From: an uncultured Planctomycetales bacterium
GTDB taxonomy: Bacteria > Omnitrophota > Gorgyraeia > Zapsychrales > Fredricksoniimonadaceae
Assembly: GCA_964572155.1 (NCBI GenBank)
Contig: CAZNDZ010000001.1
Span: 143,300 to 207,299 of the forward strand
Reading direction: 5' to 3'
DNA: 64,000 bases
Part shown: in pieces, positions 2,782 through 56,600 of the stretch
Numbering within the stretch: position 1 is the stretch's first letter
Layout: the number at the start of each line of letters is the position of its first letter
Made by a program: the position numbers and the translations under genes
The notes under the pieces: model-generated
What the model was told of the DNA's origin: nothing
Database searches by the model: none
The model's input: only the letters and a program-made list of their open reading frames with translations

Positions 2782-2805
2782 AGTAAAGATGATATCATAG
2801 CACCC

Positions 2806-6830: not shown

Positions 6831-6904
6831 TGGGCGGTGAAGGAATTGAACCCTCAGCCTATTGAATGTAAGTCAATTGCTCTAACCAATTGAGCTAACC
6901 GCCC
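6831..6904 (-). tRNA. tRNA-Val (anticodon TAC)
   Basis: reverse complement GGGCGGTTAGCTCAATTGGTTAGAGCAATTGACTTACATTCAATAGGCTGAGGGTTCAATTCCTTCACCGCCCA; anticodon loop CTTACAT; 5' end overlaps the stop of the permease gene by about 10 nt. Confidence 0.85.
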
Positions 6905-11564: not shown

Positions 11565-12030
11565 GTTGTAATTTCTTGATGATCTTCTCAATTTTTTCTT
11601 GAGCTTCGTCTAAATTCTTAACCTCAATCATCCCATTGATCTTCCAATTACCTAAATCAATGACGGGACGGCCATAGACCAGCGCATAACAAATTTCAGA
11701 ATTGGTGCCATAGCTGCCCGGTAAAGCAATGACAATGTCGGCGGCACAGGCAACAATGACGTTACGGGAATACCCGATCGACGTCGGCAGGGCAATATCT
11801 ATATACGGGTTCGCATCCGCTTTATCTTTGCCTGGCAAAATGCCAATCGTTAATCCGCCGGCTTTCTGAGCACCCTCTGCCGCAGCTTCCATCGCCCCAC
11901 CCAAACCACCGCAAATTAAAATGCAATCAAGTGAAGCAATCATCCGCCCAACCTTCATGGCTAAATCTTCAACCTTGACGCTAATGGAACTACCACCTAT
12001 AACCGAAATCGTAATCTTCTGTTTTCTCAT
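11557..12030 (-). CDS. TIGR00725 / LOG-family Rossmann-fold protein
   Basis: 157 aa; ISVIGGSS..GGLGGAMEAAAEGAQKAGGLTIGILPG signature. Confidence 0.65.
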   Translation of the reverse strand: MRKQKITISVIGGSSISVKVEDLAMKVGRMIASLDCILICGGLGGAMEAAAEGAQKAGGLTIGILPGKDKADANPYIDIALPTSIGYSRNVIVACAADIVIALPGSYGTNSEICYALVYGRPVIDLGNWKINGMIEVKNLDEAQEKIEKIIKKLQHA

Positions 12031-14978: not shown

Positions 14979-15006
14979 TTGCCTTATTGTGATTATGTTT
15001 TATACT
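14979..15006 (+). promoter_or_regulatory. sigma70-like promoter TTGCCT-16nt-TATACT placed for a leaderless transcript
   Basis: the -10 hexamer ends 6 nt before the ATG at 15013 and no SD precedes it, consistent with leaderless initiation. Confidence 0.3.
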
Positions 15007-15012
15007 TTAACT

Positions 15013-16398: not shown

Positions 16399-17058
16399 AT
16401 GCCACGTCGCGCCCGCATTGTTCTACCCGGTTACTTTCATCACGTAACTCAACGAGGAAACTATCAGCAAAATGTATTCTTAAGCAATCAAGATCGAGCA
16501 GTATATTTAAAATACATTGATGAAAATGCTCAAAAATATGGTCTGAACATTTATGCTTTTTGCTTAATGGACAATCACGTACACTTTATTGTGACCCCTA
16601 TAAGCAAAGATTCACTTTCAAATACTTTTCGTGTCGCTCATCAACGATATGCTTTGTATGTAAATAAAAGAGGTCGACAATTGGGGCACCTATGGCAATC
16701 TCGTTTCTACTCCTGCATCTTATTAGGAGAACACATTGCCCGCGCTATTCGTTACGTAGAACGTAACCCAGTACGAGCAGGATTGGTAAATAAACCGGAA
16801 GATTTCTTATGGTCTAGCGCTCGATCACATTTTGGGAAAAGATATAGAATAATATCCTTAACTGATATCCCAAAATATATTACTGTTGAATCTTGGAAGA
16901 AATACCTTACAAGTGAAGATGCGCCTGAAGATTTGCAAGAAATACGAGCTAATACACTTCAAGGAAAAGCTTTTGGAAATGTAAACTCCATTGAAATTCT
17001 AGAGAAACAAATTGATAGAAATTTAGTGTTTTGCCCTCAAGGAAGACCTAAAAGATAA
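16399..17058 (+). CDS. REP-associated tyrosine transposase (RAYT, IS200/IS605-like Y1 HUH transposase)
   Basis: 219 aa; MPRRARIVLPGYFHHVTQRGN, HUH motif NHVHFIV, catalytic-Tyr block RYVERNPVRAGLV. Confidence 0.8.
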   Translation: MPRRARIVLPGYFHHVTQRGNYQQNVFLSNQDRAVYLKYIDENAQKYGLNIYAFCLMDNHVHFIVTPISKDSLSNTFRVAHQRYALYVNKRGRQLGHLWQSRFYSCILLGEHIARAIRYVERNPVRAGLVNKPEDFLWSSARSHFGKRYRIISLTDIPKYITVESWKKYLTSEDAPEDLQEIRANTLQGKAFGNVNSIEILEKQIDRNLVFCPQGRPKR

Positions 17059-23675: not shown

Positions 23676-26600
23676 CTATGCTCGCGCTTTTCTCTTTTTC
23701 TTTAACTTGCTCATGCGTTGTGCCGCTCTGCCCCTTGTCACAACACCAAGCAATGGGTGGTAGGATTCTTTATAAAGCTTTATAAATACCTCTTGGACGA
23801 TTTTTGGGATCGGCAAACTGACGATAAAATCTAATCGTCGGTTAATCTTCTCTAGCCAATCTTTTGCGGAGCGATCCATACGTGGCGTTAAATTTGAGAC
23901 GGAATCTGCCACCTTAATCACACCCAATGCAGCTAATAATAATCTGAGCGTCTCTTTGTCTTGAACTTGTCGAACGCGTTTGCGCATGGCATGTATAAAA
24001 TCCGCATCGGTTTCGCCGTTGCGTTTGGTGACGACATCAATCATGAATACAATTTCTTTAGCCGATGCAGCCTCTACTTGACTTAATAATCCTTCTAGAT
24101 TTGCTTTTGATTGTTCTAAGGTTTCACCAAAAGCAACTTCTTTAATCCTTGCTTCAACCCAATCATGCAATAATGCCGTGGACAAAGCCACATCCAAACG
24201 CACATGCAAATCATTTAAATATCGAAGTAATGGTCGATTATTAAGGACGATTTCCATAACACCCAACAAATGGAAAATATAAGGATGTCCGTCAGAGCGC
24301 TTCTCATCTTTATGCTGTTCATACGCAATGTCGAAAGCTTTAAGAATTAATGGCATATTGATATCTTGATCATACGCATAAGCCCTTGCCAATAAACGAT
24401 CAAACCATTCTCTAAAATACACAGCCACATACGCATCATATTGACGTTCATACGCATAAATAGGGATGTTGCTTAATCCCATGAAAGTTAAATCCACATG
24501 ATCCGAATACCTTTGTGTGAACTCAGGAATCTCATTGAACCATTTTTGGGCGGTTGTAATCAACATGCCTTTAGGATGAATCCATTGCACCAAGCGGTTG
24601 GCCACCAGAACGGTTGCCATGGGCTTGTTGGGATCTTGTTGGGCTTCCACCTTAAATTCCACCGCTTGCATCATAATCAGATCAAACTTTGTGCCATTAA
24701 TAGGGGCGTAATCTTCAATGCGCTCTTCTTGGAATTCAAAATATGCTTTGTACTTTTCTTGCAACTCAACGTGGTTAATGTCCGCGAATGCAAAGAAATG
24801 GTCGATGATCTTCTGTGTCTCTGTTGGAATAAAACGTTTTGCCGCATTGGTCTTGAAATATTCCAAATTGTACCTGCCACGCTTTGCAATGTTTAAGTCT
24901 TCTGGATTCGGATCAAATACTGTGATCTTAAAATTTTCTGGTGTTAACAGTTGGCCGCCCCATAATTCTGGATGAGCACGATTATCTTCTATGATATAAA
25001 CCAAAGCACGTACGGCATTAACAGCAGAAGGTTGTGTTAATTGACGCAGGTAAATGTCTAAAATATCAAGCCGCCCGCGTTGATTAAATAATTGTCTTAA
25101 ATTTGGGATGGATTTCTTAATCAATGTTACAGCACCGCTGTTGGATTTAAATAACTCGATCTTGTAACGAATGACCATGTTCTTAAAATAAGAAACATGT
25201 TGGTTGGCTTGTGCGCGAATTTGTGGGTATGTTCTTCCACCTTGTTCATTGTAGTAAATGGCAAATATTTCGTAGACGAGTGTTTGCTCTAGAACCATGC
25301 GATTTTTTAACGCTGCCGGAAATAAGATAACAACATAAATATGTTTATGCTTTGCAGCAAATCTGGTGTTCATGGCATAAAGCGTATTGCCATCTCCGAC
25401 GCGACGAGTCCACTCATCTTGCATTTTCTTATCAGCTTGCACAATCACCAATTCATTGCCTTCATTCTGGCCTTCTAGCATTTGAACCAAAACTTCTGGC
25501 GCTTTCATTTCATGAAAGAATTCTTCTATTTTTCCTCGAACATCTACATAATTTCGATCTGTCTTTAACAGACGTAATTCATGTTTAACTAAATTTAAAA
25601 TCTTTCCTCTATTAAAAAAAAGAAAATCATGCGCCTCTTTTAAACCTGCTTCATCTAACGGCAACAATGTCCGTGCAGGGTCAACGGACTTATTTTTTCT
25701 AATGTCTCGGCCAAGTGATATGAAATATGCATGAATCACACCACCAATTGCAGCGAGTGCCCAGCCATTTGATTTTGTAACAACAAAGATCGTTGTGCCT
25801 GGGAACAGAAAAGAACCTGGAAAAAATATTTTGTAGATGATGGTGCTTATCGCTAAAAATCCTGCGGCAACAACGAGTCTAGCTAAAGTTACATTGTATG
25901 CCCTTGGCCCTAGTCTATTTTGAATGATGTCAAAGGCTTGCTTACGAATCCACGCAAAAACTAAATAACTTGCGACGCTGCTACCAAATAATACGATCGT
26001 GGCTCCAAAACTATAAAGCATATTGTCATAGATTGGCCCAGACCCGAGGCTCATTAAATTCGCGATGATAAACGTCCAAATAGCTGTCTCTTTAATTGAC
26101 CTAAAATCTAAAATTTCATAACGTTCACGAGCTGTTGGATTTGAATGATTCACAAATGATGTGGCAACCAAGTTGCCAATATCTTCATTAACCTGATGGG
26201 ATAAACCTAAGATCGCACCTGCTTCATGCGCAATTGAATTTAAGATGTCTTTTTTATCTTTGTTGCGTTGTGGCATGAGAACGATGACGTTATATTGAGC
26301 ATCTTTAAAGCTAACCGGCAAATGGAATGCGGATATTTTAGGAGCGGCTACGTTACGCAAACGGTTGAGCCAAACTTTAATGTCATGCTTTAATTGCGCC
26401 GGTGCATTGATAACAATGGTGTGTTTATTGCGCAATAAATCGATCATGCGACCGATATTATCATTGTAACTAGAGTAGTTCTTTTTTAATTGCTCTAGTT
26501 GAGCAATTGTCTCTAAGATTTCTTTTTCATATGTTTGCGTCCCAGGGGCATTGTTTAAAACTGCCTCTAGGGCAAGCTCGATGCTGGGTACATATTTCGC

Positions 26601-29600
26601 AATGATCTTCCTTAACGATTGACGCTGTTGCTTTGTCATTTCCCAGGAACTACGTGCAACATCCTTAGCGTTATCTTTTAGTAAGAAGACTTCTTTATCT
26701 TTAAGACCAAAGATATGACTGACAGACCCTACATATTCTTGAGGCGTATTAAACTCTTTACCGCTTAATACAACCAAAAAGAATGTGAAAAGCTGATGAT
26801 TTGTTTTGAAATTAAGTTTGGCGATCTCTGTTTCCAGGCCCGTTTTTCTATCGCTTTCACGACGTAGATATAGTAAATATGGGATCGACCTCTTTAATAC
26901 AGCCATGGCAAAAATAAATTTCGCTGAGTGGCGCAACTGAAGCCTTGGGGCAAGTTGAAAATATTCTGCGTAAAGCGTCACCATTAAGAATAACAAGTCA
27001 TCATTCTTATAACCTTCAAAATCGATGCGATATCCAACCGCTTCATAGACAATCCCGCCGATATCATTGCCAACAGGAATTCTAATTGGAACACCTTCTG
27101 GCCAAGCAATTTTAAAAACCTTTAAATACTGCGCCTTAATCCATTGTTGTTTTGCTGCAACTTTTTCTCTTAAAGTAGGCTCTGGTGAATATACAATCGG
27201 CTGCGTCTTGATTGGAACAAAAATGCTTTTTGATGACTTGATTGGATCAATGATCACAGGGTCTTGCATATAATGTAACCATGCATGCGCTATAAACACA
27301 ACCAACGCTTCAATCCCAAACACATACAATGGTATTTTTTGTTGAAAGATAATACCTAAAACAATAAAGAGCCAAACAACCACATTCACCATATTTTTCC
27401 ATGTTGCTTTTGAAATGACTTCCGATGAACCTTCGATGCCAATCACTCGATCTAAATTGGAAAGCTTCATTAAACGTCGCTGGGCTTTAATCGCTGCCTT
27501 TTCTGTTGGTTGCTGTTCATGAGCGATAACATGGGCAATGAAACGCAAGGCTTGAGCTTGTGTTAAACCAAGCCTGTTGGTTAAAATATAATAGATAACG
27601 TCTTGAGGCTCTTCGTTATTTCTAACCGTGATCATCCATTTCCACGTCGTAACATATTGACCGTTAATCTTAACTGTTTTGCTTTGGGCAATCACACCTT
27701 GGGGCAGCATCGCATGTTCTTCTAAAAACTCTTTTAATGCTCTTGTCCATTTCGCTAAATCTCTAAATTGTTTAGCGCGCAGAACATCACGCTCTTGTGA
27801 AGCCGCTTTATCTTGTTCAAGGTCTGACCAATTGTGATGACTATCTTGAGATGTATTGTCGTTATATAACCATGGGAACATGTAACGGCTAAATCTTTCC
27901 CATGAACCTAATGACTGCAAATACTTCTCTCTTGCAATCTGGTTGATATCTTGAATGCTGGAACGGATCAACATAGCCACTTCATCATCAAAATACCGAC
28001 CCAAAATCAATCTGCGATACGGCGTCATCCATATCTCATTTAATTTAAATTTAATGTCTTCCCTATATTCAAAAGCCCATACAATACCCGCAACATAAGA
28101 TTCACCTGTTCTTGTATTCACAACTTGAGCAATGAGATTCTTTTGCAAATCACTGTTAATCATATCCCACGCTTCAGTGGCATTTAATTCTTGTGAGCTT
28201 GCTCGTAACCATATGTCTGGATAAAGTGTTGGTATGGTAAACGCGTCAGCGAGCGTCATGCTGCGGACAACCAAAACCGAATCATTCTCAGAGATAAAAT
28301 TATGCACCCGAATATGGGGCGTATTCATGATGTAATGGCTGCCAGTCTGATCATCTCTTAGGTTAAAAATATCTTTAAGCGTGACATCGATGCTCACCAT
28401 TTTTTTCTTGTCTAACGCTAATTCATGAAACCATGCGACTTGTGCGGCCAAGGCTAAGGATTCTGTTGGCTGTGCTTCGTGGCGTTTGATGTTTTCTAGA
28501 ATTTCGTATGCTCTTTGTTGTGGGAATTGCTCTAACAATAAGGCTCTGACGGTTGCTTCACCGTTTTCAAAAACAGCATTCCATTGAATCTTACCCGCTT
28601 CATGTTTCGCAAAATCAAAATGACGTAATTCACTGGCTGTTCCACGAACTCGTCCTAGACGGAGCAATTGGATGATGAAATCTTTCAAATCTTTTTCAAG
28701 CGTTGAAAAGCCTTCATAAGCAACTGTATCATTGCGGTACTTCATCTTTGCTTCGGCCATCCCTGCAATCGAAATCGCGTGACCTGCTTTCTTGGGTAAA
28801 CGAACAATGATTTGATAATAATCATCTTTTTTATTTCTGTAATCATCGACCCTAACCATAAAGCGTGGTGATTGTGTGATTAAGACAATGCGCTGCAATT
28901 TTCCTAATTCAAATGTGCGGGACAACCATCGCCCAAGCCAATATAAACGCCCATTGATGAGTTGCAATTTTCTGACCGTCAATAATGCATCCAAACGTTG
29001 CTCTCGGGTTTGAAAGTCTAATATATAAACTCGTTTTGTGTTAGGTAATGGATAAATCATCGACACGCCGCGACGTTCATCACCCCGTGAACTAAAGAAA
29101 TATCCATCATTAAACTTAGCCGCACCAAAAACTTCATGAAAACCAATTGCGGATTCAGGGCTATGGGTCATTAAAAATTCCACATTAGAATCTTGCATGG
29201 CCAACGCTTTGATATTGGTGATCAACAGCTTAGATAGATCTTTAGGGAAGTGGCTTCCATAATATGCCTTGCGATCTTTTGACACGCCTTTTAGATATGG
29301 GATACCGGTGCTGTGTGGGACAATGGCATTGCCATTAGGATCAAAGTTGTTTCGTACTTTCTGAATCGATTCCCAAATGGTTCCCTTCACATCACTTGAT
29401 TCAATTTTTGCTAACAGCAAATCATCCAACATAACTTTTGTCGTCCAGATAACAGAGCCCAAATAAGCACCTGAACCATTTTGTGCAACTTCAGCAACTA
29501 ACTGACCTTCAGGGTTCTTTAAAATCATGCCCCAAGCTTGATGGGCATCAAAGATATCTGACGGTGTTGTCATCCAAATGTCCTGTTGTAATGCAGCAAC

Positions 29601-32600
29601 AGGCAATGCGTCACTTAATGTCATGTGACGGATGATAACAACTTCGAAAACACCATCTTTGGTGCGATTGTAAATGCGCACATAAGGCTTATCGCTTTCA
29701 TATGCCTTGGGATCATCACCTTCTTGCAATTCATAAATGGAACGTTGAACGACTTCAATCGTTGCTTGACGACGACGATCTTGAGCTAATCGCTTAACTA
29801 GCAACTTTTGCGCTAAAATAGCGCGTTCTTCCGTCGACTCTGCTTCATGCACCCTAATGTGTTCTAAGATCTCGAATGCTCGATTGGCTGGGAAAACTTC
29901 GAGGAGCAACTTTAAAACCGTAGCTTCACCATTTTCAAATGCCGGATTCCAAACAATATTACCAAAATCATGGCGGGCAATTTCAAAAACACGTAATTCT
30001 TGCGGTGATCCTCGAATACGGCCGGTATCTTGGAGATATTGCAAGAACACCGTCAAATCCTTTACAAGATCAACAAATCCTGCCTTTTGCATGCCTTCAA
30101 TGGTCATGGGATGATCTTGATGTCGTTTGATGTATTTGATACCATCCGCGTCGACATTTTTAGCCGATATGAATTCAAAGATGGCTGCAAGCCCATGTAA
30201 ACCTGCCATTGCAAAAAGCGTATACTTTACAAAAACGGATATCACCCCAGCGGCTAGCAGCGATAGAATCGGCGCCGCACTTAATATAGAGTCAACCATG
30301 ATATACGGCGTGATCAAGGCTGCGACTGTAACAGGTTCAACATATAACCCTGCCGCAGCCAATAATAAGGCCGCAACAGCACTGGCAAAAAATCCAAACA
30401 AGAACGTTACGCCACTCACACCGTCGATACGACCTTCGTGAAAATTTACTCTGACTTTCTGTCCAAACATCAATGCCCCAAGCAAATGCCCAAACTCATG
30501 CCATGCGATGACGCCGGTATATTTCAATAAGTTTCTGACGCTCGACGATAAACCAAATGGCAATTGGTCGGTCCAAAGCAAAAGACCAAGATAGGCAGTT
30601 CCTGCAAAAACCTTGGTTCTTATAAAACCATTTAGATCCAACTGTTCGAGCCCATTGCCTTCGAATACTTTTGGATGCAAATATATTTGATGTGCTTGAG
30701 TTTTTCCAATCACGCTGCTGGCCGTAACCCATGTGATCAGAAATTTATTACTGGGATTGATCCAAGCAATTTTGAGGGGATCGATGGCTTTATTTGTTAA
30801 GAACTTTAATGTTTCTGGACTTAAAGCCTTCATGAAACGTTGACGTTCGACGTCATTTAATTCTCTTGGTAAATCGGTGCCAAAGTATTGCTCAACTTGA
30901 ACACCTAAGTTTTTTCCGTTCTCTAGAAGTGAGCGAATGAAATCAACTTGGCGTTTGATGTGTTTCACTGGATCAACCTGATAAAACTCTCCCACCACAG
31001 TGACTAAGCGTTGGGCAATTTGAATAGCATTCAAGTAACCTAAATCATCAAGTTGTTGATTCACAAAGATGAAGATAAATTCATCACCGCGATCCTTAAC
31101 ACCCTGCCATTGCGCCTTCATCGCTAAACCAACAGACTTAAATTCACCGTCCATTTTTCCGGCACTGGCCAACACATTTTTTAAACGCGCTGCCACATCA
31201 GGACGGCCTTGCGTTAAGCGATCTATCGATGCTTTAGATAGCGCCGTTAAATCAATTAATATGACACGATTATTGCGCAGCATGTCGGCCAACAAGTTCC
31301 CCATGGATAAACGTGGTTCTTTCGCTTCTCTAATATTAATGGTTTGATCCGGATGAGTTTGTAAGAAGTCGACCGCGAGTGTCGCAGCAAAATGATTCGG
31401 CTTTAATGTATGGTCTACATGGTTAGAAAACACAACACTATAGAGTTGCTTGAAGATATTGCGATAAACACCACTGTAACCATAACGCATTTGTGCTTGA
31501 TCGCTATCATATTGCAAGCCAACGTATGTATCGACAGATCTGTTTTGTTGATCTTTTTCAAAATCTCTAAACACAGCATCTAACTCATACTCAGCTTGCC
31601 TTTGTTCTTCTTCTAGCATCAAGGTTAAAATGGTGTTGCGGGCATATTCATCATCGGAAACAGCGCCTAAAATATCTAAGCCATCATATAAATGTTGTAA
31701 TTCAACAAAGTTTTCTGGTTTGCCTGTGAAATGATTTAAGGTAACATCAATGGCTTGTTGCTCATTTTCTCCTAACGCTTCATGTCCTAATATTTCATGT
31801 CGCAAAACATCTTTAAGCACCGCCAAAAATTTCGTGCTGCTGCGTTCATTCGTATTAAACGGCGGCAACATGGACATGGGGATCACATTAAGCAAAACGC
31901 GTCGGGTTTTAAAATCATACTGAGCTAAAATTTCTTTTGGAACAGCATTGGTAATTACAATGTTGTTCATGCGGCTAACAGGTAATGACAACCCTTCAAG
32001 TGCGGCTCGCACATAGGCTTGCTGACGGGCCAATAATTCATCGCCAGATGTAAATTTATCGGTGTCCAAACGGTGATGCCAAAAATCAAAACGTGATGGG
32101 TAATCAGATTTAATTTCAACAGGTGGCGTTCCAATGACGTCGACGATTTGGCCAGATGAAACTGGTTTTGGTGAACGGGTTGTATAGACTTTGGTCTGAC
32201 TGGTTGAATTCCAAGGATTGTAACGCCAGAAGGTGATCAAACGATCCAAGCCCTCTGGTTCAACCAAGGCCACTTCACTAAATGTTAAGACAAACATCTT
32301 TTGCACGGCCACCATATTGATTAACCCGTCATACATGATGCCGTATAATTTACGCACGTCACTAGATGCATCTCTAAAATCAACATCGCCTAAATGAATG
32401 TGATGATCCGTGACGTTGGAATTCTTACTATGGTCCGTCGCTTCTTCATTCGCTACTCTTAAGCCAGTGGTAAATACTTCAGCGCCGCCAGTAAATAAAT
32501 CACGGTAGCTCCACCCTGTTAATATCCCTTTGGTTTGCTTGGCAGTGGTTGCCACGTTGGCGGCGCGTTGAGGATCAATGGGTAAGAAGAAAAATGCCTT

Positions 32601-47600: not shown

Positions 47601-50600
47601 TCTTCGCGTATTTAATTCACGTTCGATGATTTGCTCTGTTGTTTCATCAAATTCTTGATTTGTTGGCCTTTCTAATGGAGCTACATCCGCTAATGTTATG
47701 CCACTAATCGATGATTTTAAATCATGACCTACTTCCATGAGCATTTGCTTGAGTGGAGCGCGATATGTTACCCAGATCATGCGAATATTTCCTTCAATCG
47801 CAACATGGATCTCAATGCTTCCAAATGAAACAGTTACTTGTTCCCTTGTTATACGAACTTTTGTACCATCAACTTTGTAAACATAGATATTTAACCGCTT
47901 GCCTATCAAATCTAAAATGGCTTTAGCTACTTCTTCTTTATTTTCAACGTTCACATGCTCTACAATTATTTTAAAACCTTCGGCTGTCTTTCTAGCATCA
48001 ATTGTAACTTCACTAGAATCAACATTAGGTAATACATCCTCAACAGCACTCATGATTGCAGCATCTCTTCCATTTCTAAAATTAACAACTGCTCCAACAT
48101 GATTGGCTGCTTGCCCTAAACGATATGACCGATCACCCTTATCTAGTTTCATGGCCATAGGATCTTCGATGCTCAAATATCTTGTGTGTATGTCTTTTAA
48201 GGTTGAAACAAGCTTGCCCCAGATTGATTGTTCAACAGGTTCTACGTTCGTTACTTGATCATTTGCGCCTTCATCAAGCCATGCAAAATCTCCGTCATCT
48301 AAATCATTGTTGCGTGTAACAACTGGGTCACGTTTTGCCGCATCTGTTATTCCTTGCAAATCTTCTGCTAAAGTTACCTGCAATGTTGTTATCGGTGCTG
48401 CTTCAACAGGAGCGTCGACAACTGGATCGACAATAACTTGATCTTCTACCACAGCTGGTGCTTCTGGTTTAGCTGGGGCTGTTTCAACAATACCTAATTT
48501 TGCTTTCGTGTCCGCGCTTAATGGTTGTGCTGGTCCTAAGAATCTGCTTCTGCTCGACGGCTTTGGTGCAGCGGGAGCGGCTGCTTCTACTGGCGTTGAA
48601 TCAGCTTGTGTTGCTCCTGTGGTATTTTGCTTCGCTGCTTTAGCGGCGCGGAATCTTGCTGCGTAATCAACTTTATTGCTTAATAATGGCGTAACTTCGG
48701 CGACAGGTTCTTGAACGTCTTGAACTACAGGCGCACCGGAATTCTTCGCTGCTAATTCTGCGGCCCATTTAGCTGCGTAATTTACTTTGCCTTTATCTGG
48801 GGCTGGGGTAGCTTCCACTTTTTCTGCTGGGGCATCGAACGTCAATAGCAAAGGTGATTGTGAATCTTCTGCGAATCGACGGGTAAATACAACCGTAGGT
48901 TCGCTAATCACAACTTCTTTCACATATTGCAAATAATCTGCTGGTGTGACATTGAGCTTTAAATAGAAATTATTGTCGATGATGACGACTTCTTGGGTCT
49001 TTACTTGAATTCTATAATTTGTGTTGGTCGCTGTTTCAATGATTAAACCTGCGTCGATGATAGCTTGTTCTAATTGTGCGGCTAACCCTTCAGGTCTAAT
49101 GTTAACTGATCCGATGCGCACAAACACACCGTTGTTATTCTTAATCGTTAAGAAATTAAAACGGTTTTCAGTGTTCACAAAGGTTTGGTTAAACACTTGC
49201 CTTAAAATGTTTTGTGCATCTTTGGATAACTTAACAATACTACCCTTTGGCGTTTGAACACCCTTGGCTCTTGGTAATACCGTATTTGTGCGCGATGGTG
49301 TGACATTTACAGGAACGACGAGCGGGATAACATTACTTGGTGTTTCAACAGCAGCTTCCTTCTTTGCTTCAGGTGCTGTTGGTGTTTCTGGAACAAACGT
49401 AGCTTCATTAGCTGCGACTGTCTTGCGACGGAACTTGAATCCTGCTAACCAGGCGATGGCATTGGCAATGGCATTGTTTACAACTGCAAATGTTGGACCA
49501 GCCCTGACAGGCGTGTAAGTAATATTAATGCTCTTAATATTTTCAACAGCAATGTTGATGTGAATGCTGCCAAACGTGATCACGACATCTTTTGCTAACA
49601 CTCGAATGGTTGTGTTATTAAACGTCTTAGCAATAATTTTTAATTGATTGTTAAGCGCAGCATACAAAGCTTTGGTGATTTCATCTTGCTGGGCTTCTGT
49701 TAGTTGATTTGAGCTAATTTGAATCTTCACGAAATTACCCTTATCAGCTGTTTCAATGATCTTGGTTGTGATCTTACCAATTGCAACATTGGGCAACACA
49801 TCGTGAACAAATTTTTGAACGGATTTTAATGTCGTGCGGTTTAACGTAATTGATGAACGCGTTGGTTCACGTATTAAATCTAAGTTGTAAACTGGTGATG
49901 TTTTCTTTAATAAGCCTTTAAAGAAGGTGCTGGTCGCTATCACCGTCTGAATAAAAACAATATAGTAGACGCCCAATAAGACCAAGACTTCCATTGGACC
50001 TGAGAATTTATTAAAGAAGATATCTGCAAGCACTCTGCGCTTACCTGGCTTTGTATGATGATTATATGGATACGTTTCAAACTGTGTGATGTTCCAATCT
50101 AAACGTTCTAATGTCTTTTTGCTAAGCTTCGCTTCTGCGGCAACAACATCTTTTTCAACAGCGGCTAATTTCTTAGCAGCAAAGCCATTTAATTCCAAAT
50201 ACGCCTTGGCATTGGCTAATGATGTTTGAATGGCTTTGTAGTAGTCTTTGATTTGCGTCTGTTCAAATGTGGCTACAGCTTTTGATGCTTCTAATTTCTT
50301 ATCATCTAATTTATTGCTGGCCACATCAGCGACTTTCAAGACCATTGGCAATGGCGCGCGTCCGTATAATCTTGCGTGATGTGACGGATATTGATGGAAA
50401 TATTCTAATCCCTTAACGTGGTCGTTTGCAGGTTCGACAGCTTTACCAGCAACCATCACAAGTTTTTGTAAATCACGATCTGCTCGGCCTAACCCTAAGA
50501 CTTGCTCGACCTTTAATATCATGTCCATCAAACCCCAACCAAAAGCGATTACAGCATTCTTCGCATCAAAAACCCAATCTTTCCATGTGGTCTTGGGGTT

Positions 50601-53600
50601 AAACCAGAATGGTGCAACAACAGCCACAACAGGCATGAAGACAACGGGCGCCCATAAGATGAATTTCCAAGGATGAAGCCCGACGTAGAATAAGATGACC
50701 GCACTCCAGAATGCCCCTTGTTGGATCACATATGAACCATTGATATATGTTAATTTAACATCCTTATCTCTAAAGATATTCCCGCCCTTACCACCCGTAT
50801 TAATAAACTTCCCTAAACGGTTTGATGCTAAAAGCTTAATTGTCTCGTCATATTCCCAAACGCGATATAGATAGAATGTATACATTCTTGGCATAGACAT
50901 TAAAGTTGCCATGATGCCACGTAACCAACCTTTACCAAGGTCGTAGATATTATAGAATGCTAAACCATAGCTGATGGCTTGCGATAAGACCATGCCACCA
51001 ATCCATAATGCCAATGGCACGCCGCTAAATACGTTCCAATCAAACATCAAGATAAACACAACCAACCACTTGAAGTAGCGGTTGATCAAAACTTTCTTAA
51101 AGTAGAAGCCTACCCCGTCTAAAATGAAATTATTAACTAAGAATGTCCAGCTTACATATTTCGATTGAACCAATTCCATGAATGAACGACCAGAGGCAAT
51201 TTCAAGTGAATCGTATGACCATTTGCGCATTGGGTTTCTTGATTCACGGAATTGATATGGCCAACCCTTATCAACTTCGATGGCGCTTGCTCTGCCCGCA
51301 ACATAACCAAACAACATATAGCGAATGACCGTCATGAAATCTTCGGCAACATAAGAATCTGTTAAACCTTCTGAATGACGCAACGCTGCAACGCGTTCGA
51401 ATAATTTACCGTATGCACCAATGCCACCAAAAAGCATCTTGCCTTGTTGTGTATGGAAATAAAACGCATTTTCGCCAACCGGAATGATCTTACCGACAGG
51501 ACCTAAATTACGGGTGATCTCATGGTTAACAACCGGTGTTGTGACCGCTAAACTTTGATTGTAAGCATATTCTAAAACGTGTGAAACAACGCCTTCCATC
51601 CCAACATAGCTAACACGATGATCAGCGTCTAAGTTAAGCAAAACAGAACCCATGATATACGGCATGATCGCTGTCTTCTGATTCCACTTAGCCCCATGAT
51701 AATTCTCAGCCTTCTCAAAATCCGTGCTAAGCCCACCACCAAATAATCTGGCAGGTATAACGCGGTCATTAATAATCAACTCAAATAATTTTTTGTACAT
51801 CTCAGGACTATTCGAGATCTTTAAGAGATCATAGATTTGATCGAAAGCCTTATCTGCTAATTCAATCGGTCTGCTAACAACTTTCCCTTTAGCATCTCTT
51901 TGTAATGTAACTCTGTCTTTTGATGTATTCTCTACTAAGACTCCCTTATTGATTAATGCTTCCAAAATGCTAGGACCATTCTTAATCGCATTGAAATCCA
52001 TTTTAGAAACAGATGTGAAACTAATTTTCAACAAGCGATCAATGTGTTCAATTGTTGCACCTCTGATCACATGTCCTTCTTGATCTACAATTGCAGTCGA
52101 CGCATATTCTGTTTCGATCAAAACATCTACAATCTCACGTAATTTATCTTCTAAAATACTATTTAATTCATGAACTCCCATGAGCAAACGATTGATGACT
52201 CTGAATCTGCTTAAGGCCCATTGGGTTGGATTTGCGACGTCAAACATCTTGCCGTAATACGTATAAAGATCTTTGAGGACTGTTTGATTGCTCTTGGAAT
52301 TCGACCAGACAGTTGGTAATTGTGTATTCGCCCACAAGATAACGGCCTTATACGTTTCGTCAGAAATATTCTGTGGCACATACAATGGGTTATTAAGCAG
52401 CGCCAAGAACTCAGATTGCTCTTCTTTAGAAACCACATTGTAAACCATGGTTACAAAGAGTTCTTTCTTGTACTTAGCCAACATACCTAAACGATGCACA
52501 AGATCGATTGTGCTGTTATCTGCGGCGGCTTTGAGCAATTGATCTTTGACGAAGAAGAAATCTTCACCATAACCGGTGTTAACCACTGTAAATGAAGCTA
52601 CCTCTTCCTTAGTTAATGGTTCTAACCCTTTGTCCATGCGGTATTGATTATTAATGTATTTCATGACGCGCAATAAACCAAATTCACGCATGATAGGTTT
52701 ATGACCCGCCACTAACAATGGTGTGGATAAATCATTGATGAATTGATCAATGGCTGACTTTAACGTCGCTCTGTTTAAGAATGGTGTCACATAATCTACG
52801 TTTGGTCGTGCTAAATGATATCCGCGATCCTTGCTCGTCAATTCTTCAACAACATTGATAAATGACTGCAAGCGTTCTTCGCCGCGGGTCTTGTATGTTG
52901 CATTGCCGTATAAACCTGTGGTTGAATCGGTGAACAAATCAAAAAGCTTTGCTTTGATGGTCTTAATTTTTCTAATGTTATTAACTTCATAAATATTGTT
53001 GCGCCAATTATGACCAAACTCAGCGATGCCCATGGCTAAATAATTAAAGGAATAGAAACTTAACAACCATGTGCTGGCAAATAACAAATATGGGATACCC
53101 TTTAATATCATTTGAACAGCTTCAGGGATCGCCACAATGTACATTTGAATGCCTAAGATCCAATTAACACCAAAACTTGCAGCAATCAAGGCAGCTTGCG
53201 ACCATAAGATAATCTTGTAACCGCGCATCAAGACCTTTAGCTTATGATTATCTAAGTTGCTGTCCTTGCTCTTTACATACTTGACTAATAAAGCTTTAGC
53301 TACCATGCCAACTAAGATGGCGACGATGGTTCCAATCGAGCCAATCATAATGCCGGTTGGCACATCAATGAACTTGGAGATGCTTAAGAAATCTGCCGCT
53401 TTATACGCTAAAGTTGAGAAGTAAATGAATAACCCCGTCACAACCGTTAACAAGGTGATGTTGTTTAACTTGCGTTGAACTTCTTCATGCGTATCTAAAT
53501 ATAAATATGGGCTTTCAAATACACGTTTTGCAAATTGACGTGACGTGGCCAATAATATGGTTGGATTTACAAATAATCTCCAGTGAGACTGACGATTCTT

Positions 53601-56600
53601 AATGCTTTGCACACCATAAATGCTATCTATTAAATTTGCCAATCCTTTGACTGCAAAATTAATCTCATTTAATCGACGGGCAAAGGTTGCATCTTCTTTG
53701 GCGCGTTTTAATTGTTCTACTTCTTGTAATTGATCATTTCCAATTAAGGCTAAGAAGCGATTGACGGCTGCGTCGATCTTGGCTTTTTCTTGATCGTTAG
53801 CGACATGGTTCGTCTCAGGGAAGATTCCTTGCACATATCCAAACACATCGTTGTAAAGTTCTTCATTCAAGATTTGATGTTGATTTACAATCTTGTCGTT
53901 TGGATCACGACCTTTTTCTAACTTTTGTTGAACTTCTGTATTCAAGATGGCTTGGAAGATCTTGGTAAATCTTGAAACATAATCCATGACATCTTTGAGA
54001 GCTTGGGTTCTGGCTGCGCCGCTTAAATTAAGCGCTGGCATGATCTTGGTTTGCCATAACCAATCTTCTGCACGGCCTTGTCCTGTTAAACCAAACATGC
54101 CACGTTGTAAAACAGCCTTCATGAAATATGCTTTTTCGACGGAAATCACTTGCCCCGTTAACAATTTATTAATGTAAGGAGAGCTTTGTGTATGGTTTTC
54201 GATAGGATAAAGGTACAACCCTGAGGCGATATCCATGGCATCGAATTCTAAACGTTCTGGTAATAATTGCGTGTTGCGAATATTGTTTAAGAATGTGCTT
54301 CTTAATAAAACGCGTTGATCATTAAACTTAGCGCTAAATCCAAGATCTTGATCAATTTGATCCACAATCGCTTCAACGCGATTCATATAACCTGCAGATA
54401 CCATCGTTTTCTCGATAATCATCTTTAAGAAAATACCTGCAGCTTGGGATTTTGATACACGACCCACATAGCTTGCTGCTAACTTACCATTAAAGATCGC
54501 TGCCGTATCAATACCCAAATCACGTACCATATTTGTTACACCAATAACGCTTGGGCTCATTGGGTCTACATCACTTAAACGTGCAATCGCAGCAATCACT
54601 TGAGGCATGTTGCTCTTCAATTGTAAGTCTTTCAAGTCTTCATTGGTAAAGACATCTTTACTCTTATAGATATAACGACGATCTGAGGCTAATAAGCGCA
54701 TGGCGCGTGCAAAACGCGCTTGTACATAAATGCGTTTCAATAAACTACCGGACTTCATAACTAAACTTTGTAATTGATTGCTTAACGCAACAACTTGTTC
54801 ATAGTTTGCAAATGCACCATTCAAGCGACGTGCACGAATGATGAATGCGGCTTGAGCTTGAGTAAATCCTAAGCTTTCTAAATCTTTCAACCAGCTGGTG
54901 TTGATATTGAAACGCTTGCCATGCATTGCAAACCAGATCCTCGTACTTAACCATGGCGTGAATGCAACGAATAAGAACACCAGTCCACCAGCAGCCAACA
55001 TTAAATTGACAAAGCCTTCGACAAAGAACGAGGTCATTGTCTTTGGTGACGTACCAAGCTTGCCTTGGAAATCACCTTGCATGGTCATGAAGTTTGGTTG
55101 ATTGATAGGATTATTATCTTTATCTAAGAAGCTAAAACGCAAAGCTTGATTATTCTTTTCTCTTAAGATTTCATTAATGATGTCTTCTTGAGGACCCTTG
55201 AAGATGCGTTTGACCATTCCGATAGCGCTTGTTTCATTTAAGTCGACATCATTTAACACCGTATCATATGGATTCGTATCGACCTTGAAATTATCTTTTT
55301 GGACAATGCGTTTGCCGTTTAAGAATAATCCTATTTCTTTTCCATCGATATATTCATGGGTGAAGCGATCCCACCATGAAGCAACCTTCACGTCTGCTGA
55401 AATCAAGTGATAAACGTTGCCCTCTTTATCTGCATAAAGATAGTTATCAAATGAAGAGTATTGTTTTTCTTGGCCATCTTCGATGGCATTGGTATACAAC
55501 GGATAACCATAGCCGTCAAAGTCGAAGTAGTAGATGCGGCGTTTGCCGTCTTGGTAGCGGCGTTCTTCAAAATATAACCCTGTGCGCAAATCATAGGTGA
55601 TGGCTGAGTTTTCAACCTTAACCATGTTCTCTAATACAATCTTGTACTTAGCAATGTGCGCATTATTTTGATTTGGATCAAAGACGTATTGGGTTTCACG
55701 TAAGTGATTGTTAAAACCACGGATCTTTTTGTTCAAGATCACTTGGCCTGGGGATAAATCGTAAGGCACGTTTGATACCGCGCGTTCCCACCATTTAACA
55801 AAGCTGATTTCACCAGATGGGCCTTCAACAGCTAATGAGCGGTTTAATGGATCATTTGGAACTAAATATGTTTTAATGGCTGCTTTTTCAAAGTGTGCGA
55901 ATTTAGCACCGACAGGCATCAATGGGTATTCAACGATAACGTCGAGCGATGTTTCTGGATTAACATCGAAATATTCTTTCATTTGCTTCTTAAAGCCATT
56001 AAACAATTCACGAGCTTGAATCTTTGAACCATTTTCTTTCATAGGTTCCAATTCTTTGATCGCACCATATGACATGATCTTATAACTGTGAATTGGACTG
56101 CCTTCTGTTCTCCATTGTGTATTGATCTGAACGAATGTTCCTGGGTTCATGACATCTGGATCTTTGCGGATTTGGGCGAAGATAACACGAGCTAACGGAT
56201 CTCCCTTAATACGATAGGCAATTGAATTTAAGCCGTATGGACGTTTTTCAACAGCCATCTCAACCTCAATTTGTCCGTCAATGATGCCTAATTCTTTCGC
56301 AATGTCTTGGATACCATTCTTGAATTCCTGTGAGATGCTAGCTCTTAAAGCATCATTGGAATTTGTATTGTTCAAATATTCTTGAATCCTGCCTTCGACT
56401 TGTGGCAATGGTAAGGTGAAAATCTTGGCGCGAACATTGATTGTTTGATCATTGATCACAAATGAACTACCAACTAAGAACGCTCTAGCTGTGACAATAT
56501 CGCTATCTAAAATATTGCGTAATTGAGCATGGTATTCATTGCCTGCAACACCGCCATCTGGAAGTCTATCAAAACGTCCAAACTCAACACCAGAAATAGC

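Follow-up and report, generated by a model that had tools for sequence, protein, structure and literature searches.

What does a bacterial reading frame that stays open for 40 kb encode? In the window (the whole 64,000-nucleotide stretch of DNA analysed here), one such frame occupies most of the minus strand.

23676..64000, minus strand: giant open reading frame (13,416 aa or more), which ends in a stop codon at 23676-23678 and is still open where the window ends

The count of 13,416 codons starts at the first GTG; a further 24 codons upstream of it are open as well. The N-terminus lies beyond the window, so both the protein length and the helix total given below are lower bounds. On sequence grounds the source organism is an Omnitrophota bacterium; the named best matches of the neighbouring GlmS (64-70% identity) are all Candidatus Omnitrophica/Omnitrophota. 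Giant Omnitrophota proteins with many transmembrane (TM) helices have already been published, with proteomic support for one such gene, which makes the window protein one more member of a kind known for the phylum.

One gene, many membrane helices

Could the frame be an artefact, either genes fused through assembly or sequencing error or a decaying pseudogene? Its 40 kb are an extreme length for a bacterial gene, and the greater part of it has neither homologue nor Pfam domain. However, the frame runs for 40 kb with no internal stop (the other five have 510-1,224 each), and its codon-position GC pattern (GC1>GC3>GC2) is uniform along its length. The C-terminal 404 aa and 202 aa recur identically in contigs of two other sequencing runs, and the neighbouring proteins are present on 6-9 contigs, one of 1.34 Mb. 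Relatives are open for several thousand aa too, the homologous 22-kb locus of another MAG is one single open frame, and the published Omnitrophota genes are a precedent. An artefact is hardly credible.

The initial annotation had listed 13 hydrophobic clusters. In each of these intervals one or more strongly hydrophobic segments, 19-23 residues long, do appear on three scales: Kyte-Doolittle (KD), a TopPred-style GES scan and a re-implemented Hessa/von Heijne dG_app predictor, whose parameters were validated on only a handful of window proteins. By dG_app, 20 segments score 0.5 kcal/mol or less, and another 11 no more than 2. Only three fall outside the listed clusters, namely aa 6714-6733 and the weak aa 6642-6661 and 13325-13343. 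The first of these had been overlooked, so that the count is 14 rather than 13. Soluble spacers do lie between the clusters, but they measure 111-1,418 aa and not 200-1,300 aa as proposed.

Are these stretches mostly the buried cores of soluble domains, in a protein that is soluble or held by one or two helices? L, A, V, I and F are abundant in the protein, and the soluble enzymes of the window reach GES scores of 1.6. Windows with KD >= 1.6 are no more frequent (25) than in shuffled sequence (27), so the bare count proves nothing. However, dG_app recovers 12 of 12 helices in an amino-acid permease of the window and 2 of 2 in a DUF502 protein, and about 4,400 aa of soluble enzymes yield just 1-2 false positives at dG <= 0.5, against the 20 segments here. 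Strong segments exceed shuffles about 6-fold (14 with GES >= 1.7 against 2.4 +/- 1.5, maximum 7; 8 with GES >= 2.0 against 0.7; 200 shuffles) and are clustered, neighbours at most 60 aa apart numbering 15 against 2.7 (maximum 9; n=200). In aa 1-2965 of the same protein, of the same composition, the dG_app scan finds no segment that qualifies as TM (best dG 2.6). Clusters 2 and 3 share homology with the helix bundle in the solved Fks1 structure, and diverged homologues keep their hydrophobicity at exactly these places. Across 9 aligned homologues (25-40% identity), mean hydropathy reaches 1.3 only at clusters 1-3 and in one 91%-gapped, poorly aligned stretch, cluster 4; in the two homologues P0065 and P0066 such windows occur only at clusters 9-10. 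The positive-inside rule is also obeyed (see Topology). Together, energetics, clustering, Fks1 homology, conservation and flank charges disfavour buried cores, which are very improbable. For clusters 5-8 and 11-13, where homologues could not be detected, the evidence is hydrophobicity and flank charges.

The region is therefore likely to be the middle and C-terminal portion of a single genuine gene, encoding a polytopic inner-membrane protein whose 14 clusters, spread over aa 2972-12743, contain about 31-35 alpha-helical spans.

An FKS-like synthase module

The first part of the chain within the window reads as follows.

55014..64000, minus strand: TM-free region, aa 1-2971, predicted extracytoplasmic (best dG 2.6; side from alternation and flank charges)
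54948..55013, minus strand: cluster 1, single TM helix aa 2972-2993, dG -1.46 (hydropathy, GES, dG_app)
53031..53468, minus strand: cluster 2, four TM helices aa 3487-3508, 3526-3548, 3570-3591 and 3611-3632, N-terminal to the glycosyltransferase (dG_app)
51147..52649, minus strand: predicted cytoplasmic GT-A glycosyltransferase, FKS (GT48)-like, aa ~3760-4260 (profile and fold matches)
50601..51080, minus strand: cluster 3, four TM helices aa 4283-4301, 4303-4325, 4399-4417 and 4420-4442 (dG_app, AlphaFold, homologues)
49920..49988, minus strand: cluster 4, single hydrophobic helix aa 4647-4669, candidate span, dG -1.13 (dG_app)

A Pfam search found no domain in aa 1-2971. From there on about 9 homologues keep the order 1 TM, 4 TM, glycosyltransferase, 3-4 TM and at least 1 TM, with fixed distances to the ED motif; cluster 1 lies at about -1,210 aa in these, and the site of cluster 4 carries 1-3 TM helices at +455 to +710 aa. 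Cluster 2 forms four long helices in the AlphaFold model, with hydrophobic peaks conserved across 9 homologues, and at cluster 4 the pLDDT is below 50.

Profile and fold comparisons show clusters 2 and 3 and the GT-A domain to form a predicted FKS/BcsA-type processive glycan synthase, bacterial and with GT2-type motifs. Against the PDB, the family profile matches Fks1/Gsc2 with E 1e-25 across the GT domain and the helices that follow, and BcsA with E 1e-6. The AlphaFold model of the module (pLDDT 78, pTM 0.81) retrieves Fks2/Fks1 first in Foldseek (E 1.7e-10 to 4e-9), followed by BcsA, HAS, CesA and Chs1; the model's alignment with Fks1/Fks2 spans about 1,230 columns. PF02364 scores above threshold in the relatives P0057 and P0047; on the window sequence it reaches 14.3 bits, below the Pfam threshold. 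The catalytic residues of Fks1, Y849/E851, K1082/N1085, D1102 and E1221-D1222, have window counterparts in GYGED (3785), KWNQ (4080), DAD (4100) and VAED (4193) (PMC12715860); RKW follows at 4234. Cluster 3 also contains an amphipathic interface helix (4334-4369), a FINTGGKGG loop and a terminal APFWFNP. It is HMM-aligned to Fks1 from TM7 on, and the alignment ends at the Fks1 motif APFIFNP. The interval 50517-51155, previously read as TM helices throughout, does contain them, but also non-spanning interface helices. By these comparisons the module is related to the beta-glucan synthase of fungi and plants, a relationship not remarked before.

The LysM region

45660..45728, minus strand: cluster 5, single TM helix aa 6067-6089, N-in/C-out, signal-peptide-like, end ..TPAYA/Q (5 K/R in N-flank)
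45480..45605, minus strand: LysM domain aa 6108-6149 in a 111-aa outside loop (Pfam PF01476, 27.7 bits, threshold 20.9)
45258..45326, minus strand: cluster 6, single TM helix aa 6201-6223, dG -2.76, out to in (5 K/R in C-flank)
43728..43787, minus strand: extra cluster, single TM helix aa 6714-6733, dG -0.11, GES 2.06, followed by ..TNTYA/Q (GES, dG_app)
40842..40973, minus strand: HEAT_2 repeat aa 7652-7695, within a 1,418-aa module 6734-8151 (Pfam PF13646, E 3.5e-7, 30.8 bits, threshold 27.7)
39405..39473, minus strand: cluster 7, single TM helix aa 8152-8174, dG -1.51, out to in (Arg/Lys/Gly/Pro-rich tail 8175-8202 after the helix)
38250..38384, minus strand: cluster 8, helical hairpin aa 8515-8537 and 8537-8559, dG -1.1 and -0.36 (dG_app; both outer flanks positive)

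The LysM domain, which also matches SafA LysM in the PDB (E 0.008), probably binds peptidoglycan or another GlcNAc polymer. It had been proposed to lie outside, and this agrees with the positive flanks of the two bracketing helices, which both point away from the loop. Without the extra helix at aa 6714-6733, the topology would not match the C-flank of helix 8152-8174, which is positive. That helix, described as a single span (39411-39485) with a cytoplasmic stop-transfer flank, indeed has 5 K/R in its C-flank against 1 in its N-flank; the tail quoted for it, GNNGRGPRGGKRKSNGPKPAPQAP, is found at aa 8179-8202.

The C-terminal modules

35715..36152, minus strand: cluster 9, 4 (possibly 5) TM helices, aa 9259-9404 (dG_app; peaks conserved in P0065 and P0066)
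35217..35690, minus strand: probable class-II (Ntn) glutamine amidotransferase-like domain from Cys9413 (invariant residues, hhalign)
33027..33509, minus strand: SIS (sugar-phosphate isomerase)-like domain aa ~10140-10300 (motif, hhalign, Foldseek)
32799..32972, minus strand: cluster 10, 2 (possibly 3) TM helices, aa 10319-10341 and 10354-10376 (dG_app; conserved in P0065 and P0066)
30210..30626, minus strand: cluster 11, 3-4 TM helices, aa 11101-11239, HEFGH at 11143-11147 (M50B-like intramembrane metalloprotease candidate)
27264..27383, minus strand: cluster 12, helical hairpin aa 12182-12203 and 12200-12220 (dG_app)
25698..26087, minus strand: cluster 13, 3-4 TM helices, aa 12614-12743 (dG_app; weak NicO match, E 0.008)
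23889..24338, minus strand: C-terminal RelA/SpoT-like HD domain aa 13197-13346, predicted cytoplasmic (GHPYIFHLLGV ... ALLHDWVEA)

The amidotransferase (GATase), SIS and HD calls belong to the giant frame itself and not merely to the adjacent glmS gene. The amidotransferase-like domain carries KCGNFG, RGGQT, GHVRFATAGKA..SHPH and THNGD, with invariant residues in the alignment, and hhalign puts Cys9413 onto Cys2 of GlmS (E 0.003, probability 10%); a Pfam search of the domain was negative and the AlphaFold pLDDT is 40. The SIS-like domain has AISDSGQTFPTL at 10157 and SEASTVD at 10221. It aligns to GlmS with E 3.7e-4 (hhalign), and the top 50 Foldseek matches of its low-confidence model are all SIS proteins (E ~3e-4); Pfam was negative for this domain as well. 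The HD domain reaches E 0.0012 and 19 bits with Pfam HD_4, under threshold, and E 0.025 with GTP pyrophosphokinase in the PDB. Cluster 11 looks like an M50-type intramembrane metalloprotease domain by its sequence (PF13398: E 0.0058, 16.8 bits, under the threshold of 26), as does cluster 9 in degenerate form, with NEAAH in one of its helices where the homologue P0066 has HEILGH.

Topology

An alternating model with 31 helices obeys the positive-inside rule, which had been suggested as a check. K+R make up 16.9% of inside flanks against 7.3% of outside flanks (Fisher p 8e-4), in a partly tuned model (the strongly hydrophobic 4647-4669 left out, two weak helices of dG 2.1 and 2.9 added for parity) whose outside flanks are shorter than its inside ones. 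The more positive flank is inside in 26 of its 27 informative helices. By alternation and flank charges the model would place aa 1-2971 outside, aa 2994-4442 with the glycosyltransferase inside, the LysM loop 6090-6200 outside, aa 6224-6713 inside and the HEAT-like aa 6734-8151 outside. From aa 8175 to the C-terminus everything would be inside in the best model, including the GlmS-like amidotransferase and SIS and the RelA/SpoT-like HD domain. The sides to which the model assigns LysM, SIS, GATase and HD are those required by their biochemistry, as the initial annotation had presumed for the last three, and its view of a many-pass protein with domains on both faces holds. The outside placement of HEAT repeats is unusual. 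The chain was also said to weave through the membrane. It is indeed multi-pass, but most clusters are even in helix number (4, 4, 2, 4, 2, about 4, 2, about 4), so the chain comes back to the same side and is stapled to the membrane rather than woven through it.

One aspect that does not fit is parity in aa 4443-6066. With the glycosyltransferase inside and LysM outside, the listed helices between them do not add up. What if some large modules of the same protein lie on the opposite side, for example aa 4670-6066 outside, with 4647-4669 spanning and a weak extra span elsewhere? Helix 4647-4669 has a dG of -1.13, and 1 or 3 helices are kept there in homologues. P0008 and P0011 carry an extra TM helix at +299 to +334 aa from the ED motif, and at that site the window has a well-modelled helix, aa 4448-4476 (dG 3.1), a candidate fifth helix after the glycosyltransferase. 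With both spanning, LysM parity is restored and aa 4472-4646 lie outside. However, a dG of 3.1 is far above the range of control helices, and this placement is a tentative possibility that we hold to be the lesser one. A further step, compatible with the preferred reading of one polytopic protein, is that the chain is translated and inserted as a whole and then cut into separate membrane proteins. A class-II amidotransferase requires a free N-terminal Cys, and the invariant aligned Cys lies at residue 9413. The 13,416 aa contain just one other Cys, the 3,022-aa homologue P0065 has no Cys besides the counterpart of this one, and such an internal nucleophile hints at cleavage. Candidate cuts are before Cys9413 and at signal-peptidase-like sites after aa 6094 and 6737, where two N-in/C-out helices end ..AYA/Q and ..TYA/Q, or cuts by the protein's own HExxH protease modules. 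Three HExxH motifs occur where about 0.2 would be expected (hand calculation), one of them within the M50B-like helix cluster, and such giants have likewise been suggested to be cut by their own peptidase domains (West-Roberts et al., 2023). However, the GATase assignment is weak on the scores given above, the domain could be a non-catalytic relic, and the 5 occurrences of YAQ (1.8 expected, up to 7 in shuffles) are not significant on their own. Cleavage is, on balance, rather unlikely.

Implications

On the preferred reading, of a single polytopic protein, the chain would be a membrane-tethered line to make, export and hold a cell-surface glycan. Its parts would be a hexosamine-phosphate supply, a polymerase-exporter and a LysM anchor, borne on a large surface-exposed N-terminal part. 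By analogy, the synthase would polymerise nucleotide-sugar on the cytoplasmic face and extrude the chain via its own helix bundle. The remaining clusters are side-switching single helices or else, as hairpins and sets of four helices, fasten cytoplasmic modules to the membrane. To the giant proteins known from Omnitrophota this adds two details: a predicted bacterial FKS-like synthase module with GT2-type motifs, and extreme cysteine depletion combined with a probable internal amidotransferase nucleophile.

Reality of the Giant Gene

The giant open reading frame occupies 23676..63926 on the minus strand and encodes 13,416 aa, numbered here from the first GTG. Because a further 24 in-frame codons reach from 63926 to the window edge without a stop, the true N-terminus lies outside the window. 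This frame has no internal stops over its 40 kb, whereas each of the remaining five has 510-1,224. GC content by codon position is constant over the whole gene, and the C-terminal 404 aa and 202 aa are found in identical form in contigs from two other sequencing runs. The stop-free frame, the uniform codon-position GC and the identical end establish that this is a real gene rather than a chance open frame. Two ORFs opposite the gene are probably spurious and have no Pfam match:

41635-42336 (+), 233 aa
44773-45330 (+), 185 aa

What if the gene encoded a repetitive adhesin? Self-comparison of the protein gives only two internal duplications:

aa 4702-4804 with 5290-5388 (nt ~47763-49820), minus strand, about 30% identity
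aa 11266-11495 with 11710-11951 (nt ~28074-30128), minus strand, about 37% identity

With almost no internal repeats, a repetitive adhesin is ruled out.

In the 23 kb beside the giant gene are ordinary bacterial genes (the pyr operon, mutM, glmS and genes for a D-Ala-D-Ala carboxypeptidase, a DsbA-like and an AlkD-like protein), the products of which are also present on an NCBI contig of 1,344,502 bp. The best NCBI-named relatives of the GlmS encoded here (64-70% identity) are all from Candidatus Omnitrophica/Omnitrophota MAGs, and the first named homologue of the giant itself, P0001, is an Omnitrophica protein. Between the pyr operon and glmS is a pair of genes that may be a small mobile insertion, and elsewhere in the flank are three ORFs for large multi-span membrane proteins:

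14989-16254 (+), Peptidase_S74 (endosialidase chaperone, as in phage tail fibres)
16399-17058 (+), adjoining IS200-type Y1 transposase
736-2781 (-), YfhO-like protein
2806-4413 (+), PMT_2 (GT-C type glycosyltransferase)
4331-5971 (+), 10 helices, no Pfam match; overlaps the PMT_2 ORF by 83 nt in a different frame

Hydrophobic Segments

The initial annotation placed at least 13 clusters of transmembrane (TM) helices along the chain, numbered here from the N-terminus. This observation is confirmed, since strongly hydrophobic stretches are present in all 13 intervals. The count needs one addition. All 13 clusters were found, together with a 14th at aa 6714-6733 (dG -0.11 in a dG_app scan). Two of the single clusters listed there are hairpins (aa 8515-8559 and aa 12182-12220), and in total there are 31-35 helices in 14 clusters.

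The choice of scale matters here. The number of windows with KD of at least 1.6 is no higher in the giant than in shuffled sequences, so this count alone is no evidence. The Wimley-White octanol scale at threshold 0 gave 84 segments versus 113 in shuffles and was dropped. Two extra scales, a TopPred-style GES scale and the Hessa/von Heijne dG_app, were calibrated on proteins of the same window. GES recovered 12/12 helices of an amino-acid permease. Soluble enzymes score up to 1.6 on this scale, so only segments of at least 1.7 were counted as safe; there are 14-15 in the giant. dG_app, re-implemented here and validated on in-window control proteins only, recovered 12/12 permease helices and 2/2 in DUF502; across ~4,400 aa of soluble enzymes it made 1-2 false calls at dG <= 0.5. 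Applied to the giant, it finds 20 segments at <= 0.5 and 11 more at <= 2. Three of its segments lie beyond the 13 clusters, namely aa 6714-6733 and two weak ones at aa 6642-6661 and aa 13325-13343; none qualifies in aa 1-2965. The giant has about 6 to 12 times as many strong segments as shuffled sequences, and about 5 times as many close neighbours.

Two further candidates were rejected as TM segments. One, aa 5648-5691, reaches a KD of 2.15, yet its dG is at least 2.06 and it is Pro-rich. The other, aa 4810-4830, has a dG of 2.9. Pro/Val/Ala-rich low-complexity linkers at aa ~5640-5900 (nt ~46230-47010), e.g., PIPFISAPIVSSAVVPVVQAPNVDVAPIVVVPAVAATVVHPVV, are hydrophobic on simple scales and not helix-like.

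An FKS-like Synthase Between Clusters 2 and 3

The next question is what the clusters are. Whole-protein and 5,000-aa searches of Pfam and PDB sequences gave almost no matches, and smaller pieces helped slightly. The clearest answer concerns clusters 2 (aa 3487-3632) and 3 (aa 4283-4442), which bracket a glycosyltransferase (GT) domain at aa ~3760-4260. A profile of the family alignment around this module matched the 1,3-beta-glucan synthases Fks1 and Gsc2/Fks2 in the PDB with E about 1e-25 (hmmsearch; Fks1 residues 836-1500). The match spans the GT domain and the subsequent helices, as far as a shared APF(I/W)FNP motif. The same profile matched BcsA, the bacterial cellulose synthase, with E 1e-6. 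An AlphaFold2 model of aa 3481-4680 built with this alignment has a pLDDT of 78 and a pTM of 0.81. Foldseek with this model ranked Fks2 and Fks1 first (E 1.7e-10 to 4e-9, about 1,230-1,246 columns), followed by BcsA (E 9e-7), hyaluronan synthases, plant CesA and chitin synthase, all of them membrane-integrated processive synthases. PF02364 (Glucan_synthase) scores below threshold in the giant (14.3 bits versus a cutoff of 37.2). Two distant relatives, P0057 with 71.8 bits and P0047 with 42.9 bits, exceed it. Glyco_trans_2_3 and related Pfam models do not match the giant; among distant relatives, P0045, P0052 and P0047 pass only marginally.

The residues known to act in catalysis or UDP-Glc binding in Fks1 are Y849, E851, K1082, N1085, D1102 and E1221-D1222 (PMC12715860). 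The family alignment places them as follows, all on the minus strand:

Fks1 Y849 / E851: GYGED, aa 3785-3789
Fks1 K1082 / N1085: KWNQ, aa 4080-4083; N spacing off by one residue
Fks1 D1102 of the DAN motif: DAD, aa 4100 (D-A-D-H 4100-4103)
Fks1 E1221-D1222: VAED, aa 4193-4196

Two of the motifs are GT2-like rather than GT48-like. The giant has a canonical DxD (DAD) where Fks1 has a metal-independent DAN, and its last motif, NPMRKW, keeps the R and W of the GT2 QxxRW as an R-K-W remnant that Fks1 does not have. Of the GT2 signature (D, DxD, (T)ED and QxxRW), the giant has DAD and AED, and the Q of QxxRW is absent.

The module can be compared with two groups. Like FKS1/FKS2/callose synthase (CAZy GT48; PDB 7xe4, 8jzn, 9wzs), it consists of a helix bundle, a cytoplasmic GT-A domain and a second helix bundle, with counterparts of the UDP-Glc binding residues, an ED motif and a C-terminal APF(W/I)FNP. 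FKS enzymes, which are regulated by Rho1, have 6 + 11 helices, whereas the module has 4 before the GT domain and 4-6 after; it is also without the accessory domain that is N-terminal in FKS and is embedded in a 13-kaa bacterial chain. Since the module contains no Cys, the extracellular disulfides of FKS are absent as well. With BcsA and the other GT2 processive synthases (CesA, hyaluronan synthase, chitin synthase) it shares the order of 4 TM helices, GT-A, interface helix, 2 TM helices, a second interface helix with gating-type loop and 2 further TM helices, in addition to the DxD and ED motifs. However, by profile score it is much nearer GT48 than GT2, and unlike the GT2 enzymes it has no PilZ domain and lacks the Q of QxxRW.

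Homology, the structural model and conserved hydropathy identify clusters 2 and 3 as the helix bundles that form the channel of an FKS/BcsA-type synthase. It is clear that the giant is a real polytopic membrane protein containing such a module.

Distribution of the Module

HMMER, run exhaustively with aa 3481-4680 as the query, gave 63 relatives, many of them fragments or proteins of 5,000-7,500 aa, which share only aa ~2180-4660 with the giant. Queries of 2.5-5 kaa from the giant found 1-2 relatives each. The FKS-like module, about 2,450 aa long, is common to dozens of multi-thousand-aa proteins, including P0001 and the product of a homologous locus in another MAG (L003, CAZWOH010000002.1, positions 1-22124). 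L003 was the one related locus found in a single-protein search of the genome collection. A single open frame of 7,374 codons, with 10 Cys, fills the whole 22 kb, and it matches the giant only over aa 2181-4633 (31% identity). Its MAG is labelled uncultured Planctomycetales. The label may be wrong, or the module may be present outside Omnitrophota.

Are the helices conserved along with the catalytic domain? In a 1,800-column alignment of nine relatives (25-40% identity), mean homologue hydropathy reaches at least 1.3 only at clusters 1, 2 and 3, with the exception of one poorly aligned stretch (91% gaps) at cluster 4. Scanned singly, the relatives have their TM helices in the same arrangement, at constant spacing from the catalytic ED motif:

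1 helix at about -1,210 aa
4 helices at -700 to -570 aa
3-4 helices at +90 to +235 aa
1-3 helices at +455 to +710 aa

A GlmS-like Module and Other Domains

The initial annotation also assigned GATase and SIS domains to the giant. One explanation is a mix-up with the neighbouring glmS, since a normal gene of this kind lies 4 kb downstream. This was rejected once a GlmS-like module was found inside the giant itself, between clusters 9 and 10. Two proteins obtained by word-indexed search with aa 10300-12760, P0065 and P0066, align to aa 9226-10761 with 40% and 26-34% identity and have hydropathy peaks only at clusters 9 and 10. The invariant residues between these clusters form a class-II (Ntn) glutamine amidotransferase signature followed by SIS:

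minus strand, invariant in the alignment, in order: (K/E)CG(N/I)FG; RGGQT; GHVRFATAGKA..SHPH; THNGD; AISDSGQTFPTL; SEAST

The KCGNFG motif is invariant, and hhalign places its Cys9413 on Cys2 of the GlmS of the window (E 0.003, probability 10%). The SIS part aligns with a GlmS alignment (E 3.7e-4, probability 37%) and has the S-x-S-G-x-T phosphate-binding motif. A GlmS HMM finds both motifs in the correct order in the giant, P0065 and P0066, as motif-length matches scoring from negative to about 5 bits. AlphaFold with three sequences gave a pLDDT of 40 overall and 60-70 locally; with the best-modelled part of this low-confidence model, the top 50 Foldseek matches are all SIS-domain structures. 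Pfam GATase_6/7 and SIS gave no match at E <= 5 in pieces from the window, P0065 or P0066, and a profile of the alignment of the giant with P0065 and P0066 found nothing relevant in the PDB. Motifs and hhalign, with Foldseek in addition for SIS, make a SIS domain likely and a class-II GATase domain probable.

The likeness to GlmS consists of the colinear motifs CG(N/I)FG, RGxxxxG, H(V/T)R(F/W)AT.G....HPH, HNG, S.SG.T...L and AST and of the likely SIS fold of the modelled part. In contrast to GlmS, the module has its nucleophile Cys at an internal position (residue 9413) and its two halves separated by about 640 aa rather than about 270, and it is flanked by TM clusters and unseen by Pfam models.

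Further domains are scattered along the chain. A LysM at aa 6108-6149 (PF01476, 27.7 bits versus a cutoff of 20.9) also matches the SafA LysM structure, and HEAT_2 at aa 7652-7695 is above the Pfam threshold. HHH_3 at aa 3004-3046 is below it. Within the last 220 aa is a RelA/SpoT-like HD signature, GHPYIFH...LLHDWVEA, for which HD_4 scores 19 bits (cutoff 27.2) and a PDB GTP pyrophosphokinase gives E 0.025. Three HExxH motifs are present versus about 0.2 expected (hand calculation from residue frequencies):

HELTH, aa 6419-6423, nt 44658-44672, minus strand
HEKIH, aa 10088-10092, nt 33651-33665, minus strand
HEFGH, aa 11143-11147, nt 30486-30500, minus strand, in cluster 11

The last is reminiscent of site-2 protease/M50/M50B enzymes in that HEFGH lies within a hydrophobic helix of a cluster of 3-4 helices, and a weak Peptidase_M50B alignment covers profile positions 19-127. 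However, PF13398 reaches 16.8 bits where 26 are required, no second zinc-ligand motif was identified and searches found no homologues. One helix of cluster 9 has HEILGH in P0066, NEWGH in P0065 and NEAAH in the giant. This is a degenerate metalloprotease motif, and the copy in the giant differs from M50 in having Asn in place of the first His. The HELTH motif, as VLVHELTHVF, is within an acidic 490-aa module (aa 6224-6713) without a Pfam match that could be a zincin protease.

Topology

Glycosyltransferase, SIS/GATase and HD domains need cytoplasmic substrates, and LysM binds wall glycans. These four anchors can be compared with a model of 31 alternating helices that starts outside. The model omits helix 4647-4669 (dG -1.13) and takes in two weak helices for parity. 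It puts all four anchors on the expected side, with LysM outside and GATase, SIS and HD inside, as the initial annotation had proposed. The positive-inside rule, suggested there as a check, holds along the chain: K+R makes up 16.9% of inside flanks versus 7.3% of the shorter outside flanks (Fisher p 8e-4), and the more positive flank is inside in 26/27 informative helices. The tail after helix 8152-8174, described as a stop-transfer flank, is indeed very positive and is inside in the model. This is also why aa 6714-6733 must span the membrane; otherwise, that flank would face outside. Most clusters have an even number of helices in the model, which makes everything after aa 8175 cytoplasmic. 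The parts predicted to be outside are aa 1-2971, short loops, the LysM loop and aa 6734-8151.

A many-pass protein with domains on both faces is therefore supported, as 14 mostly even-numbered clusters and with one parity conflict. By analogy with BcsA and Fks1, aa 4443 would be inside, and helix 6067-6089 has to cross from inside to outside. Helix 4647-4669 must then be paired with another span. The strongest candidate is helix 4448-4476, which is confidently modelled and has a dG of 3.1; two relatives have a detectable TM segment at the corresponding place.

Cysteine Depletion and Possible Processing

Cys occurs only twice in the 13,416 aa of the giant, once at aa 7842 (nt 40401-40403) and once at aa 9413 (nt 35688-35690), whereas its frequency in neighbouring genes is 0.3-2.7%. 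Relatives of at least 2 kaa average 0.14% Cys, compared with 1.29% in Omnitrophota GlmS, and several that exceed 5,000 aa are Cys-free. P0065 (3,022 aa) has a single Cys, and this is aligned with Cys9413. A class-II amidotransferase nucleophile must be N-terminal to work. Therefore, Cys9413, an internal residue, would need cleavage to act as one.

Another clue is that two N-in/C-out helices end in a sequence like that cut by signal peptidase I:

aa 6090-6095 (nt 45642-45659), minus strand, ..TPAYA|QE
aa 6733-6738 (nt 43713-43730), minus strand, ..TNTYA|QR

YAQ occurs five times in the giant versus 1.8 expected. A third YAQ, at aa 7846-7850, comes after a stretch of weak hydrophobicity in which the other Cys lies (..LAVCSSALTYAQ). 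Proteolytic processing of the chain, as these sequences and the three HExxH motifs might suggest, is speculative but testable.

How might such a protein work? The chain would tether several enzymes to the inner membrane, with its long N-terminal part exposed outside. The synthase would polymerise a nucleotide sugar and extrude the polymer. Hexosamine phosphate could come from the GlmS-like module, and LysM might attach the complex to peptidoglycan or to the GlcNAc-containing polymer that the complex itself makes. In its fullest form, which we consider rather unlikely, the proposal is a membrane-threaded polyprotein built around a bacterial FKS-type synthase with DxD and R-x-W, possibly a living intermediate between cellulose-synthase-like enzymes and GT48 glucan/callose synthases. 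It would be cut after insertion before Cys9413, which would activate the Ntn amidotransferase, and possibly at the two signal-peptidase-like sites. If this were true, one 40-kb gene would deliver a stoichiometric set of membrane enzymes to supply hexosamine, to make and export the polymer and to provide attachment to the wall.

Relation to Published Omnitrophota Giants

All full-length giant Omnitrophota genes encode numerous TM regions, on the placement of which TMHMM and DeepTMHMM disagree, and most encode a divergent SecA_DEAD helicase domain (West-Roberts et al., 2023, bioRxiv 10.1101/2023.11.21.568195). DeepTMHMM classed 94% of 916 long Omnitrophota proteins as membrane-targeted; those of at least 10 kaa average 22 helices (median 16), and one protein has as many as 331 (Nielsen and Lui, 2026, bioRxiv 10.64898/2026.06.07.730766). 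Since giants of this phylum with tens to hundreds of TM helices are already catalogued, the initial annotation correctly recognised a published phenomenon in a new protein. The result is confirmatory in this respect and adds one more giant of a catalogued type, at the small end of the range.

Like these proteins ('Archaeovorins' and related), the one described here is encoded in an Omnitrophota genome by a single ORF of more than 10 kaa, has TM helices all along the chain and HEAT_2 and glycosyltransferase content, and consists mostly of sequence without HMM-detectable domains. It differs in helix density (about 5% of residues versus an average of about 2% in published giants), and only about 2,450 aa are common to other giants. 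Pfam found no SecA_DEAD (reported as very divergent), dockerin, TSP3, C39 or S8 in the 13.4 kaa within the window. Neither West-Roberts et al. (2023) nor Nielsen and Lui (2026) mention an FKS/GT48-like synthase, a LysM loop, an internal GlmS-like module or M50-like clusters.

What is new beside the known giants is the bacterial FKS-like module, together with the internal nucleophile and the Cys depletion as a clue to processing. The published papers on giants leave processing open. Cys depletion combined with an invariant Cys at an N-terminal-nucleophile position yields a testable prediction that it occurs. At least some TM clusters in giants are membrane domains of recognisable integral-membrane enzymes, not anonymous anchors. 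This lets the dark sequence be read module by module, with internal anchor domains to fix the topology.

A literature search found no paper linking GT48 with Omnitrophota or with bacteria. GT48 is regarded as essentially eukaryotic. The eukaryotic GT48 glucan synthases are antifungal drug targets, and an FKS-like module with GT2-type motifs bears on their origin. The module also suggests that the bacteria carrying it make and export a beta-glycan.
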